From positions 1 through 42,110 of IMG/VR virus record IMGVR_UViG_2541047875_000007: a DNA stretch of 42,110 bases. One strand, written 5' to 3'. Below, piece after piece: positions 5,367 to 40,423 of this stretch (position 1 is the first letter of the stretch; each line of letters begins with the position of its first letter). The notes beneath the pieces are model-generated. The model did no database searches. It saw only the letters and a program-made list of their open reading frames with translations, and was not told the origin of the DNA. Made by a program: the position numbers and the translations under genes. Source of the stretch: a virus (taxonomy: Duplodnaviria > Heunggongvirae > Uroviricota > Caudoviricetes).

Positions 5367-5434
5367 GTTGGTTTTTCTCCACGAATTTACTGACAACAGA
5401 AGCCCTGACTGTTCCCGCAGTTGGGGCTTCAACT

Positions 5435-23728: not shown

Positions 23729-23758
23729 GGCAGGAGGTTGTTAGCGCAACCTCCTGCC
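23729..23758 (-). terminator. tR'-like intrinsic terminator of the late leader
   Basis: GGCAGGAGGTTGCGCTAACAACCTCCTGCC hairpin followed by GTTTTGCCC on the minus strand; matches the remembered lambda tR' region. Confidence 0.7.
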
Positions 23759-24036: not shown

Positions 24037-24660
24037 CTAACGTGTGACCGCATTCAATATGTTGTCTGCGATTGACTCTTCTTTGTGGCATTGCACCACC
24101 AGAGAGTCATACAGCGGCTTAACAGTGCGTGACCAGGTGGGTTGAGTAAGGTTTGGGATTAGCATCGTTACAGCGCGATATGCGGCGCTTGCTGGCATTC
24201 TTGAATAGCCGACACCTTTGCATCTTCCGCATTCTTTCTCAACAACTCTCCCCCACTGCTCTGTTTTGGCTATATCAACCGCACGGCCTGTACCGTGGCA
24301 ATCTCTGCATCTTGCGCCCGGCGTCGCGGCACTACGGCAATAATCCGCATAAGCGAATGTTGCGAGCACTTGCAGTACCTTTGCCTTAGTATTTCCTTCG
24401 AGCTTTGCCACACCACGGTATTTCCCCGATACCTTGTGTGCAAATTGCATCAGATAGTTGATAGCCTTTTGTTTGTCGTTCTGGCTGAGTTCATGCTTAC
24501 CGCAGAATGCAGCCATTCCGAATCCGGCTTGTGATTGTGCCATCCCCATAGCAGCCATCACATCAGTACCGGAAAGAGAGTCAGACGCCGTGGCCCGTGG
24601 TGAGTCACTCATCATCGGGCTTTTTGGCGAATGAAATTTAGCTACACTTTCGAGTCTCAT
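24037..24660 (-). CDS. Q: Late antiterminator Q (lambda-type)
   Basis: 207 aa, MRLESVAKFHSPKSPMMSDSPRATASDSLSG...CRDCHGTGRAVD... essentially identical to lambda Q from memory. Confidence 0.95.
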   Translation of the reverse strand: MRLESVAKFHSPKSPMMSDSPRATASDSLSGTDVMAAMGMAQSQAGFGMAAFCGKHELSQNDKQKAINYLMQFAHKVSGKYRGVAKLEGNTKAKVLQVLATFAYADYCRSAATPGARCRDCHGTGRAVDIAKTEQWGRVVEKECGRCKGVGYSRMPASAAYRAVTMLIPNLTQPTWSRTVKPLYDSLVVQCHKEESIADNILNAVTR

Positions 24661-30905: not shown

Positions 30906-30937
30906 GCCCTTTTTCAGGGCTGTGATGTGTAAGAGCG
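30906..30937 (-). promoter_or_regulatory. nutR: boxA (30930-30937) and boxB (30906-30920)
   Basis: Minus strand CGCTCTTA ... GCCCTGAAAAAGGGC, identical to remembered lambda nutR boxA/boxB; immediately downstream of cro. Confidence 0.8.
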
Positions 30938-31161: not shown

Positions 31162-31273
31162 ATGCCCTCCATAGTAACCATGAAACAATAATACGATATG
31201 TACTTTTAGAATGCAAACAAAAAAATACATCTTGTGCATGGATGGTTTTAGTACAGAGCGTAATAATAATGGT
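31162..31273. promoter_or_regulatory. OR region: PR (minus; -35 TTGCAT at 31211-31216, -10 TATTAT at 31188-31193), putative PRM for leaderless cI, and two copies of a 12-bp operator motif (31192-31203, 31251-31262)
   Basis: Motif GTACA-N3-CGTA occurs at the PR -10/spacer (reverse orientation), near the PRM -10, and again at PL (32072-32083). Confidence 0.6.
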
Positions 31274-31933
31274 ATGAAAATGAAATGGTATGAACTGGCT
31301 AGATCCAGAATGAAAGAGCTCGGCATAACTCAAGAGAGGTTAGCTGAAGAGCTTGGTATGACGCAGGGTGGAATTGGTCACTGGTTGCGCGGATCTCGTC
31401 ATCCATCTCTTGACGAGATTGGTGTGGTGTTTAAATACCTTGGTATTGATAACGTCTCATTCAACCACGACGGTACATTTTCACCTGTTGGCGAATACTC
31501 TCTGCCCCCGTTAAAAAAACAATATGAGTACCCTGTTTTTTCTCATGTTCAGGCCGGGATGTTCTCGCCTGAGCTTAGAACCTTTACCAAAGGTGATGCG
31601 GAGAGATGGGTCAGCACAACCAAAAAAGCCAGTGATTGTGCGTTCTGGCTTGAAGTTGAAGGTAATTCCATGACCGCGCCAACAGGATCCAAGCCAAGCT
31701 TTCCTGACGGGATGTTAATTCTCGTTGACCCTGAGCAGGCTGTTGAGCCAGGTGATTTCTGCATAGCCAGACTTGGTGGTGACGAGTTTACCTTCAAGAA
31801 ACTGATCAGGGATAGCGGTCAGGTGTTCCTACAGCCACTAAACCCGCAATATCCAATGATTCCATGCAATGATAGCTGTTCCGTAGTAGGGAAAGTTATC
31901 GCCAGCCAGTGGCCTGAAGAGACATTTAGTTAA
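31274..31933 (+). CDS. cI: CI-type prophage repressor (HTH plus LexA-like S24 peptidase domain); start uncertain (ATG 31274 or 31280)
   Basis: [28 protein letters not shown]; C-terminal S24 features (AG cleavage-site context, GNSM, and a Lys-containing DEFTFKKL segment). The track's upstream ATG 31211 lies inside the PR -35. Confidence 0.85.
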
Positions 31934-32125: not shown

Positions 32126-32156
32126 AGGCTCTTAAAAATTAAGCCCTGAAGAAGGG
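32126..32156 (+). promoter_or_regulatory. nutL: boxA (32126-32133, GGCTCTTA) and boxB (32142-32156, GCCCTGAAGAAGGGC)
   Basis: boxB identical to remembered lambda nutL boxB; boxA differs from CGCTCTTA at one position. Confidence 0.85.
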
Positions 32157-32340
32157 CGGCATTCAAAGCAGAAAGCTTTGGGGTGTGGTGAAGCTCAACG
32201 GCGAGCTAGGGAATAGTTTTGCGGTGAAGATTCTAGACAACTAACCGCAGGATGCGCGTAACCCAATCGGCAGCGCACCGATGGAAGCTGGTTCGACTCC
32301 AGCCACCACACCACCAAAGCTAACTGACAGGAGAATCCAG

Positions 32341-32869: not shown

Positions 32870-32895
32870 GGCCGCATAGTCGGCCTTTATTTTTG
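32870..32895 (+). terminator. Candidate intrinsic terminator in the early-left operon
   Basis: GGCCG-CATAGT-CGGCC followed by TTTATTTTT. Confidence 0.5.
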
Positions 32896-32916: not shown

Positions 32917-33213
32917 ATGGAATTTAAAGGTACTGAAGGTAAGTGGGAAATAATGATGGATGGCGATGAGATTAAAATCATCCAGGCAGACTCACTTGAA
33001 AATGGCGCAGGCTGGCGTTCGTATATTGCAATCTGTGAGGAAGTTCAATGCATTGAAGATGCCAATCTAATAGCGGCAGCACCTGACCTTCTCGAAGCAC
33101 TTCAGTTATTACTTAAGCAAACCAAAAATAGAACAACGACAACATATCCAGAATGGTATGGAGCTGTTAATAAAGGTCTCGCAGCAATAAGAAAAGCTCT
33201 TGGGGATAAGTAA
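32917..33213 (+). CDS. Hypothetical protein (98 aa)
   Basis: ATG with AGAGG upstream; no family recognised. Confidence 0.6.
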   Translation: MEFKGTEGKWEIMMDGDEIKIIQADSLENGAGWRSYIAICEEVQCIEDANLIAAAPDLLEALQLLLKQTKNRTTTTYPEWYGAVNKGLAAIRKALGDK

Positions 33214-33401
33214 TGAAAGTAAAAATAACTGCTTCTAATACCAGTTTTGTTAGTGTTGGTGATATTACAGAAGTAATAACAAACCATGATGGAACACAAG
33301 TTATGTGGTCTGATTTTTGTAAAAGATATGAGCGAGTCACTTGGTGTAAACTCGTATGGGGCGTCGAATACGAAGAATTACCTGAAATGCATGACGAATA
33401 A
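33213..33401 (+). CDS. Hypothetical protein (62 aa)
   Basis: Start overlaps the preceding stop (TAATG). Confidence 0.55.
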   Translation: MKVKITASNTSFVSVGDITEVITNHDGTQVMWSDFCKRYERVTWCKLVWGVEYEELPEMHDE

Positions 33402-33404
33402 GCA

Positions 33405-33432
33405 CTGTGTATTCATTCCAACGAGTGAATAC
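33405..33432 (+). repeat. Perfect 9-bp inverted repeat with 10-nt loop
   Basis: GTGTATTCA-TTCCAACGAG-TGAATACAC read directly from the sequence. Confidence 0.5.
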
Positions 33433-33496
33433 ACGGAGCAATGTCGCTCGTAACTAAACAGGAGCCGACTTGTTCTGATTATTGGAAATCTTCTTT

Positions 33497-33521
33497 GCCC
33501 TCCAGTGTGAGGGCCTTTTTA
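33497..33521 (+). terminator. Candidate intrinsic terminator upstream of the cIII-like gene
   Basis: GCCCTC-CAGTGTG-AGGGC followed by CTTTTTA. Confidence 0.55.
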
Positions 33522-33586
33522 TATGCATACCAATAACGCTTCACTCGAGGCGTTTTCGTTATGCAATCAAACAGAAGGAGCATCCT

Positions 33587-33912: not shown

Positions 33913-34011
33913 TGGCGACCGCGAAGGAATGCGGGTATGCCTTAATTTGTCCCGAGTCGAAGTATTAAATCAGCGTTATTTCCTTGGGCCGTGTCCATTC
34001 TGAGGTGAATT

Positions 34012-34719
34012 ATGGATTTGAACAAATTCGATGAGCCATTCAGCCCTGAAGATATCGAATGGCGAATACAGCAAAGCGGTAAAACACGCGATGGAAAGGT
34101 GTGGGCTATGGTGCTGGCTTATGTCACGAACAGGGCAATCATGAAACGCCTGGACGATGTTTGCGGCAAAGCAGGATGGCGCAATGAATACCGCGATATT
34201 CCCAACAACGGCGGCGTTGAATGCGGCATATCAATAAAGATTGATTCCGAATGGGTAACCAAATGGGATGCTGCTGAAAACACGCAGGTAGAAGCCGTCA
34301 AAGGTGGTCGTTCCGGTGCAATGAAGCGCGCTGCCGTTCAGTGGGGAATCGGTAGGTATCTGTATAACCTTGAGGAAGGTTTCGCACAAACATCTCTCGA
34401 TAAAAAGCAGGGGTGGCACAGGGCAAAACTGAAGGATGGAACAGGATTTTACTGGCTCCCTCCATCACTTCCGGGATGGGCAATCCCAGCATCAGATAAC
34501 AAACCATCACCAGAAAATACCAACCAGAAATCTCCATCGGTTGACTGCGAACAAATCCTGAAAGACTTCAGCGATTATGCAGCGACAGAAACTGACAAGA
34601 AAAAACTCATCGAGCGTTATCAGCGTGACTGGCAATTAATGGCTGGCAACGAGGAGGCGCAGGCTAAATGCGTTCAGGTAATGAACATCAGAGTTAACGA
34701 ACTAAAACAGGCGGCATAA
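34012..34719 (+). CDS. Single-strand annealing protein, Rad52/Sak-like
   Basis: 235 aa; ...GGRSGAMKRAAVQWGIGRYLYNL... recalled as the conserved Rad52-like annealing-protein motif; directly upstream of ssb. Confidence 0.6.
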   Translation: MDLNKFDEPFSPEDIEWRIQQSGKTRDGKVWAMVLAYVTNRAIMKRLDDVCGKAGWRNEYRDIPNNGGVECGISIKIDSEWVTKWDAAENTQVEAVKGGRSGAMKRAAVQWGIGRYLYNLEEGFAQTSLDKKQGWHRAKLKDGTGFYWLPPSLPGWAIPASDNKPSPENTNQKSPSVDCEQILKDFSDYAATETDKKKLIERYQRDWQLMAGNEEAQAKCVQVMNIRVNELKQAA

Positions 34720-37852: not shown

Positions 37853-38676
37853 TCACGATTACCAAAGAGTTCACCAAAGAGCAGTTGATTGAGCAGGCTA
37901 AGAAGAATATTGAGGTTCTTCGCGTTGCGGTGGAAAGAGTCCCAGGCGCTTATGATGCGGCGGTTATTCACCTCAAGCTGGCTGAAATTACGCTGGCATC
38001 GCTGGAAGCAGAGCCAGTGGCAAAGATTATAGCTCACTACCCATTAGGAATTGACGTAGGCAAACAAAAGTTCGTACAGGCCATTGGAGAGCTTCCTGAT
38101 TTTGGCGGATATCTATTCGCTGTGCCGCCAGCGCCGATAGCGTTGGAGGCTATTGAAAATGCAATTGAATACATTCGCAGTATCGCTTTTCACATAGATG
38201 AAGACGATTACCACGGCAAACATATTGCGTATTTCATGCGACAAGCATTGGCCTGGCTGGAAGGGCGTTCATGCAGCGACGACAGACTGGGTAAAGCCGA
38301 GAATCAACCAGTACGCGGCAATGAGTGGACTGGCAATCCTGATATTGATAACGCCATCATCATGCTCGACCGCATAGATACGCTGGAAAATTGTGATGAT
38401 GACCGTATTGAGGGTGTTAAGGCTGTTTTGCGCAGACTGGCTGTCAACTATCCGGTAACTCCGGATGGTTGGATAAGCTGTAGTGAGCGAATGCCGGATA
38501 GCAAAACAGCTGTTCTTGTTGCCAAGGAGTTTGATAGGAAAGGTGACTGGCGAATGAAATGGGCGACTTACATACCGGGGCATCCTGACGCTAATGATGG
38601 TTGGATAATTCCTGGTGCGTCGTGGAAACCGTCACACTGGATGCCGCTACCAGAACCGCCGCAGGAGGCAAAATGA
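37849..38676 (+). CDS. DUF551-domain protein
   Basis: 275 aa; C-terminal GWISCSERMPDSKTAVLV...WIIPGASWKPSHWMPLPEPP matches the remembered DUF551 pattern. Confidence 0.6.
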   Translation: MITITKEFTKEQLIEQAKKNIEVLRVAVERVPGAYDAAVIHLKLAEITLASLEAEPVAKIIAHYPLGIDVGKQKFVQAIGELPDFGGYLFAVPPAPIALEAIENAIEYIRSIAFHIDEDDYHGKHIAYFMRQALAWLEGRSCSDDRLGKAENQPVRGNEWTGNPDIDNAIIMLDRIDTLENCDDDRIEGVKAVLRRLAVNYPVTPDGWISCSERMPDSKTAVLVAKEFDRKGDWRMKWATYIPGHPDANDGWIIPGASWKPSHWMPLPEPPQEAK

Positions 38677-40335: not shown

Positions 40336-40408
40336 AATAGCGGGTAAAATATTTCTCACATCTAAAAAACACCATTCTAATCAATCCCCTGCCGCGTCAA
40401 GTAGATGT

Positions 40409-40423
40409 CTGCAGGGGACACCA
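40409..40423 (+). other. Putative attR core: 15-bp copy of the 3' end of a tRNA-Arg (argW-type) gene including CCA
   Basis: CTGCAGGGGACACCA matches the remembered 3' end of E. coli argW; no upstream tRNA body is present, so it is a partial copy as expected at the tRNA-distal prophage junction. Confidence 0.55.

Follow-up and report, generated by a model that had tools for sequence, protein, structure and literature searches.

Organization of the PL operon around the inverted repeat

The perfect 9 bp inverted repeat studied here lies in the PL operon of a 42,110 nt stretch of viral DNA (IMG/VR record IMGVR_UViG_2541047875_000007), which is referred to as the window and whose relevant features are collected in Table 1. 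Along the plus strand the operon is ordered as nutL, N, three small ORFs, the repeat, two terminator-like hairpins and cIII. The N gene, located 3' of nutL, encodes the lambda arginine-rich motif (Pfam N36) and is found on the same strand as cIII and the locus of the small RNA PreS described below. cIII is followed by an ORF whose PHROG match carries the label "recombinase", and beyond it lie ORFs whose counterparts in related phages are annotated as Erf-like annealing protein. The repeat is positioned 5 nt 3' of the TAA stop codon of the 62-aa ORF, 62 nt 5' of the terminator hairpin and 152 nt 5' of the cIII-like gene. This stop codon is part of a conserved junction that precedes the hairpin in many relatives.

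Table 1. Coordinates of the features at the PreS locus and upstream of it in the window
Feature	Position	Strand	Remarks
cI-like repressor gene	31211-31933		
nutL	32127-32157		boxA GGCTCTTAA (one mismatch); boxB GCCCTGAAGAAGGGC, identical to that of lambda
Upstream 62-aa ORF	33213-33401	+	PHROG 10407, unknown function
TAA stop codon of the 62-aa ORF	33399-33401	+	inside the conserved junction GAATAAGCAC
RNA hairpin	33405-33436	+	14 pairs including two G.U; fold, covariation, strand stability
PreS/LPR1 homologue	33436-33521	+	identity to lambda; primers of the describing preprint; consensus fold
Intrinsic terminator	33497-33520	+	GCCCTC-CAGTGT-GAGGGC-C-TTTTT; terminator scan (call: 33497-33514 + CTTTTTATAT); counterpart of lambda tL2a, 3' end of PreS
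Second terminator-like hairpin	33535-33560	+	AACGCTTCACTCGAGGCGTT + TTCGTT; just 5' of the cIII ribosome-binding site
cIII-like gene, 56 aa	33587-33757	+	PHROG 550 CIII, E 6e-22

Several further elements were observed in the window. A boxA match on the minus strand (CGCTCTTAC, 30929-30937) is likely the boxA of nutR. The antisense RNA sar of P22 was matched at 5367-5434 (Rfam RF00262, 91 bits), which suggests a P22-like mosaic with an immI region of the P22 type. A terminator-like hairpin (GGCCGCATAGTCGGCC + TTTATTTTT, 32870-32894) is located 3' of the first small ORF after N, and the sequence that follows it, GGCCTTTATTTTTGGCATAAA..., is shared with the region just past lambda ral, so that the two ORFs at 32917-33401 look, relative to lambda, like an insertion placed between this sequence and the inverted-repeat hairpin. 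Other very stable plus-strand hairpins at 23729-23758, 24586-24627, 38437-38478 and 40384-40419 are probably terminators; the strongest among them is a 12 bp perfect repeat (GGCAGGAGGTTG/CAACCTCCTGCC, -25.7 kcal/mol).

The repeat folds into a stable hairpin in the sense-strand RNA

The perfect arms of the repeat (GTGTATTCA at 33407-33415 and TGAATACAC at 33426-33434) flank a 10 nt spacer, ttccaacgag, and the plus strand reads ...GACGAATAA GCAC TGTGTATTCA TTCCAACGAG TGAATACAC GGAGCAATG... at this site. An earlier note on this DNA had described the 9 bp inverted repeat correctly but had placed it at 33405-33432, 2 nt to the left of its real position (33407-33434). The repeat finder extended the arms to 17 nt at 82% complementarity. 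Perfect 9 bp inverted repeats with a spacer of 3-20 nt were counted 12 times at about eight distinct places in the window, compared with an expectation of 3.3 ± 2.4 counts (maximum 15) in 200 dinucleotide shuffles. A bare 9 bp inverted repeat in 42 kb is near chance level and weak evidence when taken alone; it is by its context and by comparative data that this repeat is a genuine feature not due to chance.

As RNA the plus strand forms a hairpin which, read from the base upward, consists of a C-G and a U.G pair, the nine perfect pairs, and then a U.G, a U-A and a C-G pair below the loop CAAC (33419-33422). Its folding energy is -18.8 kcal/mol (z = -6.3 against shuffles), and a value of -18 kcal/mol was reached by only about 0.1% of the scanned 36 nt windows of the plus strand. 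Folding together with the flanks yielded no duplex longer than the hairpin itself. On the minus strand the same stem reaches -13.1 kcal/mol. Each of the stem classes introduced below was folded both ways, and in every class the plus strand was the more stable one because of its G.U pairs; this stability of the sense strand points to an RNA made in the direction of PL.

The possibility that the hairpin is an intrinsic terminator was rejected: the stem is AT-rich with three G-C pairs in its 9 bp core, it is followed by GGAGCAATG without a U-tract, and the terminator scan does not call it. The earlier note's reading of the repeat as lacking a U-tract and being less likely a terminator was thus borne out.

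The gap downstream of the 62-aa ORF carries the small RNA PreS

BLAST searches of phage genomes gave similarity to more than 300 phages that begins at 33401/33402, i.e., at the last base of the stop codon or the next one. The segment 33402-33520 is the ral-ea10 intergenic block of lambda and differs from it only in 2-3 nt between the terminator stem and the T-run. From GAGCAATG through the terminator stem (33436-33514) the window is identical to lambda PreS, and the terminator tail reads CTTTTT in the window versus GATTTTTT in lambda. In lambda the repeat, with an identical hairpin, is found on the l-strand at 34013-34040 and the terminator at about 33925-33950. The sRNA LPR1, renamed PreS, was described in lambda as a strongly Hfq-bound RNA encoded between ral and ea10, which ends at the tL2a terminator, is seen in northern blots as bands of about 88 and 68 nt exclusively during the lytic cycle, stimulates translation of dnaN and represses alaS (Silverman et al., bioRxiv 10.1101/2024.10.31.621285). 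The window therefore shares with the lambda locus PreS through the terminator stem, the hairpin, the operon and the position 5' of cIII; it differs in that ea10 is missing, PreS being located 66 nt from cIII, and in that the upstream gene is the 62-aa ORF instead of ral. The gap had been described before as non-coding, with a hairpin terminator between it and a cIII-like gene. It is indeed untranslated, but it is not empty, as it holds the PreS homologue whose 5' end the repeat abuts; the terminator is a real one, namely tL2a of PreS, and the gene is a cIII gene (PHROG 550).

The cloning and T7 primers of the preprint let LPR1 start with GAGCAATGTCGCTCGTAACT or GAGCAATGTCGCTCG and end with ...GAGGGCGATTTTTTA or CCTCCAGTGTGAGGGCGATTTTTTA (primers P810, P1103, P1104 and P970/P971 define LPR1 and its seed deletion; Silverman et al.). 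In the window the start GAGCAATGTCGCTCG corresponds to position 33436 and the end to about 33521. The distance from 33436 to the T-run is 85-87 nt and fits the band of about 88 nt; therefore, mature PreS probably starts at the 3' base of the hairpin and excludes the hairpin, a placement indicated indirectly by the northern size estimate and the authors' primer design. G33436 is at the same time the last paired base of the hairpin and the first base of PreS as cloned in the preprint. Within PreS, internal helices are formed by GAGC/GCUC (33436-33449) and AACAGG/CUUGUU (33457-33474), and the seed region extends over about 33471-33487. The lambda delta-lpr1 deletion starts just after ...TGAATACACG (primer P969) and keeps the hairpin, and PreS expressed from a plasmid without the hairpin remains able to regulate a dnaAN-gfp reporter and to increase the level of DnaN-SPA protein (Silverman et al.), from which it follows that the hairpin is not needed for the action of PreS on its targets.

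In the accessible part of the preprint text the terms hairpin, stem-loop, RNase E and RNase III do not occur and the origin of the 5' end is not mentioned. PreS itself is hence already known, while the hairpin as its conserved and covarying companion is absent from that part of the text. A search of Rfam over 33396-33525 gave no match at the gathering threshold and only noise at E <= 10, leaving PreS unmatched. Other candidates for the content of the gap were discarded. A short ORF of 31 aa starting at ATG 33441 has ATA in place of its start codon in Salmonella-type copies, and its GGAG is only 2 nt away from the ATG. The RalA antitoxin sRNA of the Rac prophage lies on the opposite strand to ydaC and is unrelated, and the sRNAs of EHEC prophages belong to other loci (the anti-sRNAs are 3' of PR' and HnrS lies within late genes).

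The promoter scan returned no plus-strand candidate for a promoter of PreS nearby. As the stem occurs with four different sequences and the sequences upstream of it are unrelated between phages (see below), a conserved promoter or -10 element is not possible there. PreS lacks a detectable promoter and appears solely under derepression of PL, so that its 5' end presumably arises by cleavage of the PL transcript. This bears on an alternative in which PreS has its own promoter and is made as a longer primary transcript with the hairpin as its 5' stem-loop. Many bacterial RNAs are stabilized by 5' stem-loops, which would be in line with such an arrangement, but hairpin and PreS together amount to about 117-120 nt, compared with about 88 nt for the largest reported band, and neither the missing promoter nor the dependence on PL derepression agrees with it, so that we regard it as very improbable.

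The hairpin is conserved as a structure with compensatory pairing

Related loci were gathered with the invariant 5' sequence of PreS (AGCAATNTCGCTCGTAAC) as anchor, both in viral contigs and GTDB genomes and through similarity of cIII. At every real PreS copy, several hundred related loci in all, the hairpin was found in the same position; where the anchor matched unrelated sequence by chance, the longest perfect stem in that interval was just 3-6 bp. Four unrelated stem classes occupy the same register: class A (GTGTATTCA/TGAATACAC), which is that of the window, class B (ATAGCAGA/TCTGCTAT), class C (AATGCGGA/TCCGCATT) and class D (AATGACCA/TGGTCATT). In class B a compensatory point variant occurs as well (ATAGCTGA/TCAGCTAT), and stem variants with G.U pairs are found in nature. 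The helix comprises 14 bp in class A and 13 bp with a 2 nt bulge in classes B and D, and measures 13-14 bp in every class.

Among 48 distinct sequences, 98.7% of the helix cells were paired and 8 of the 11 pairs showed changes on both sides; neither the pairing nor the covariation score was matched by any shuffle, with the reservation that the four classes stand for few replacement events in evolution and not for many independent substitutions. Sliding the 3' partner by 1-3 columns reduced pairing to 23-52%. An independent RNAalifold run predicted the hairpin helix along with the terminator and a pair of small helices within PreS. Hardly any variation is seen in the three apical pairs (A-U, U.G, U-A), the closing pairs A-U-U ... 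A-G-U being present in 45 of the 48 variants, and the lower stem lacks any conserved stretch that RNase III could use as a reactivity box. The hairpin is conserved as a structure, with compensatory pairing. Conservation in relatives, which the earlier note had named as a check, was thus found at several hundred loci.

A few single copies (among them L342, L261 and L076) are mismatched within the stem (A.A, a G-to-T change or C.A) and account for most of the roughly 1% of unpaired cells; they may be decaying prophages or sequencing errors. A natural disruption is present in HK022 (L357, NC_002166.1, 26577-26660), in which IS903 is inserted in the left arm of the hairpin and only ...TCATTCCAACGAGTGAATACACGG is left beside PreS.

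Hairpin, PreS and terminator travel as one cassette

The class A hairpin was found in 323 phage records and exactly once in each. In the records common to both searches (mEpX2, Gally and Stx2_EH2086) its coordinates coincide with the PreS block. All loci that carry the hairpin have one copy, always beside PreS. Conversely, the PreS anchor was present within 1.2 kb upstream in 77 of the 80 contigs with this cIII allele, and the hairpin was visible at 76 of these 77 loci, the contig of the remaining one ending too early. The hairpin is preceded by 149 distinct upstream contexts, the upstream sequences being unrelated between phages, and stem classes A and B were each found both with the lambda-type and with the Salmonella-type PreS body. 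Hairpin, PreS and terminator thus co-travel as one cassette across lambdoid and P22-like phages. In complete E. coli genomes the hairpin-PreS block was detected in 2,237 of 5,426, with up to six copies each, and it occurs in Stx phages as well; among the E. coli records listed, the PreS block is either not annotated or annotated as a hypothetical protein only.

Downstream of PreS the distance to cIII changes stepwise among the relatives (about 150, 320, 480, 550, 590 and 1150 nt), which indicates an insertion slot between the two terminator hairpins (window 33520-33560; lambda L002 750-1230; L170-L249). The slot is empty in the window, where the two hairpins are adjacent; it holds ea10 in lambda, phage 21 and many Stx phages and other inserts in other relatives. 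In lambda, ea10 lies between tL2a and a second hairpin (CGCTTCACTCGAGGCG + T-run) whose sequence is the same as in the window.

Divergent types of the PreS body were observed as well (L004, L005, L007, L038, L054 and L108 were aligned). P22-like Salmonella phages harbor a longer 'S' form with a 13 nt insertion, in which the internal helix AACAGG/CTTGTT is replaced by AACGAG/CTCGTT in a compensatory manner, and a third form is present in L108. The identity of these bodies falls far short of the 92% applied in the describing preprint (10.1101/2024.10.31.621285), and the 5' 20 nt of PreS are more conserved than the seed. The exact lambda-type sequence also occurs in GTDB assemblies of Pseudoxanthomonas, Shewanella, Neobacillus, Oceanobacillus, Kitasatospora, Bradyrhizobium and others (L127, L131, L134, L136, L141, L142, L146, L148-L150, L152, L156-L158 and others), several of these contigs being short or of about 1x coverage; such copies in unrelated organisms are almost certainly contamination of the assemblies with lambda DNA.

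The distribution of the stem classes was also relevant to a reading of the repeat as a DNA palindrome that is bound by a dimeric protein in the manner of an operator; the earlier note had named a protein-binding site as one of two options. The repeat is a perfect 9 bp palindrome in DNA, and discrete sequence classes might in principle reflect different binding specificities. Neither the same palindrome nor its half-site was found elsewhere in the window beyond chance, and the element is present once per genome with half-site centers 18-19 bp apart. Moreover, the same place is occupied by four unrelated stems, and the natural variants retain G.U, which in DNA is a mismatch. The same stem class is shared by lambda, 21, mEpX1 and the P22-like UPF_BP1 despite differing upstream genes and annotations. 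A comparison of class A with class B loci gave no discriminating 15-mer within +/-2.5 kb and hence no hint of a partner gene linked to either class; the few 15-mers specific to classes C and D fall within the neighboring upstream ORF in a small number of lineages and reflect ordinary linkage. A protein-binding site is therefore unsupported and, as an explanation, barely credible. The alternative offered in the same place, an RNA processing signal, is the better-fitting option in view of the compensatory changes, the tolerated G.U pairs and the higher stability of the sense strand. At the DNA level the inverted repeat mirrors a structured stem-loop of the sense-strand RNA; it is not a DNA site.

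A proposed boundary or processing role of the hairpin in the PL transcript

We are highly confident in the structural part of this explanation and in its assignment to the locus, namely that the hairpin is conserved as RNA and tied to PreS. As to function, the best explanation, which we hold to be somewhat more probable than its opposite, is that the hairpin serves as the RNA boundary or processing hairpin of a hairpin-PreS-tL2a cassette. The stem-loop would form in the PL transcript in the interval that separates the upstream cistron from the start of PreS and would mark the site of a cut, with endonucleolytic cleavage occurring at or beside its 3' base and RNase E as the default candidate enzyme. 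After the cut a stable stem-loop would be left at the 3' end of the upstream message, where it would block 3' exonucleases, and PreS would start in a single-stranded leader 3' of the hairpin, so that the hairpin would shape the ends of the RNAs and their stability. For this inferred boundary or processing mechanism taken by itself, the chances appear even. Against it speaks the sequence immediately 3' of the stem (GGAGCAAUGU), which deviates from a typical RNase E site; further points against it are the variable distance to the upstream stop codon and the negative outcome for an insulating role (both below), as well as the small number of replacement events behind the four stem classes. In MicL, stem-loops located 3' of the cut position RNase E and the sequences at the 5' end are dispensable (Updegrove et al., bioRxiv 10.1101/341578); as the guiding stem-loops of MicL are 3' of the cut and the present hairpin is 5', the case for RNase E is weakened further.

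Direct formation of the PreS 5' end by RNase III, which would cut at the base of the hairpin, was considered as well; the earlier note had brought in this enzyme solely through its suggested check, the mapping of RNase III cleavage. The helix is perfect, lacks a U-tract and is next to an RNA end, and RNase III reportedly helps to mature DicF, an sRNA embedded in a prophage operon. A typical E. coli substrate of RNase III spans a duplex of some 20 bp, or about two helical turns, which may be interrupted by internal loops. The helix at the PreS locus has just 13-14 bp in all classes and is not prolonged by the flanks, which makes cleavage by RNase III doubtful, and its lower stem offers nothing that could serve as a reactivity box. 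Taken together, RNase III appears an unlikely source of the 5' end.

The hairpin could also be a 3' stabilizer of the upstream message and nothing else, e.g., the end point of trimming by exonucleases, with its linkage to PreS as a by-product of inheritance in a cassette. In the window, as in most contexts of classes B, C and D, it lies 5-7 nt past the stop codon, and this codon of the upstream ORF is contained in the conserved junction GAATAAGCAC; both observations speak for such an element. In lambda-type contexts, however, the distance to the stop codon is 44-59 nt and no ORF ends near the hairpin, and therefore a tight coupling to translation termination is not general. In addition, the hairpin follows PreS and no particular upstream gene, as is evident from the 149 upstream contexts. 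We thus consider a role confined to the upstream message to be possible but rather unlikely. A role as insulator of the PreS fold was rejected: when 100 nt of upstream sequence plus PreS were folded at equilibrium in 71 natural contexts, with the hairpin intact, deleted or scrambled in its left arm, neither native pairing nor seed accessibility was improved by the hairpin.

The 5' leader of PreS, GAGCAAURUCGCUCGUAAC, is invariant and includes a boxA-like motif. This gave rise to the possibility that hairpin and motif (CGCUCGUAA, 33445-33453) bind Nus factors as in nut sites or rrn leaders and modulate termination at tL2a. The motif (CGCTCGTAA) agrees with lambda boxA at 8 of 9 positions and is unchanged across all PreS types, and the order of a hairpin followed by boxA resembles that of rrn leaders. 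Matches to boxA with one mismatch are, however, at chance level in the window (15 found versus 9.7 ± 3.0 expected), the loop CAAC is unlike boxB, the order is reversed relative to nut and the true nutL lies elsewhere (Table 1), all of which renders a nut-like function extremely improbable. A different reading takes the conserved apex above an exchangeable lower stem as a dedicated recognition element that would be read together with the 5' leader of PreS by a host or phage factor, setting the balance between PreS (cut or terminated at tL2a) and readthrough into cIII and the recombination genes; we regard this as quite improbable.

Comparison with known systems

A sense-strand stem-loop in an untranslated gap with compensatory pairing, as is characteristic of a structured intercistronic RNA hairpin, was found at the PreS locus. 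The hairpins of the malE-malF REP and of pap are intercistronic stem-loops that protect the 3' ends of processed mRNAs in polycistronic transcripts. Like these, the present hairpin is stable, lacks a U-tract, is formed by the sense strand just after a cistron and is kept as a structure and not as a sequence; unlike them, it is linked to an sRNA cassette that lies downstream and not to the gene preceding it. It is further distinct in having four interchangeable stems under a conserved apical part.

DicF, encoded in the dicB operon of the Qin prophage, is an Hfq-dependent sRNA within an early-left-type operon of a lambdoid element and is released by processing and termination. It has no sequence relation to PreS, and no covarying hairpin has been described at its flank. 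The boxB elements of lambda nutL and nutR are likewise small hairpins of the same operon whose sequence varies between phages. A boxB consists of a 5 bp stem with a purine-rich pentaloop, is located 3' of boxA and is bound by N, whereas the present hairpin has 13-14 bp and another loop, and one of its stem classes is common to lambda, phage 21 and mEpX1, the last of which carries an HK022-Nun-like gene. MicL (Updegrove et al., bioRxiv 10.1101/341578) is similarly an sRNA excised from a longer transcript with structured elements beside the cut; its determining stem-loops are found 3' of the cleavage site, in contrast to the hairpin described here, which is 5' of the presumed cut.

Implications for the early-left operon

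The window can be re-annotated in that its "non-coding gap" carries the PreS gene. PreS raises host DnaN and supports lytic growth, and its excision from the PL transcript is not addressed in the accessible part of the describing preprint. The co-inherited, covarying hairpin at the 5' edge of PreS is a concrete and easily mutated candidate for a maturation or boundary signal. If the reading as a recognition element were true, the hairpin would represent a previously unrecognized control point in the early-left operon of lambda.
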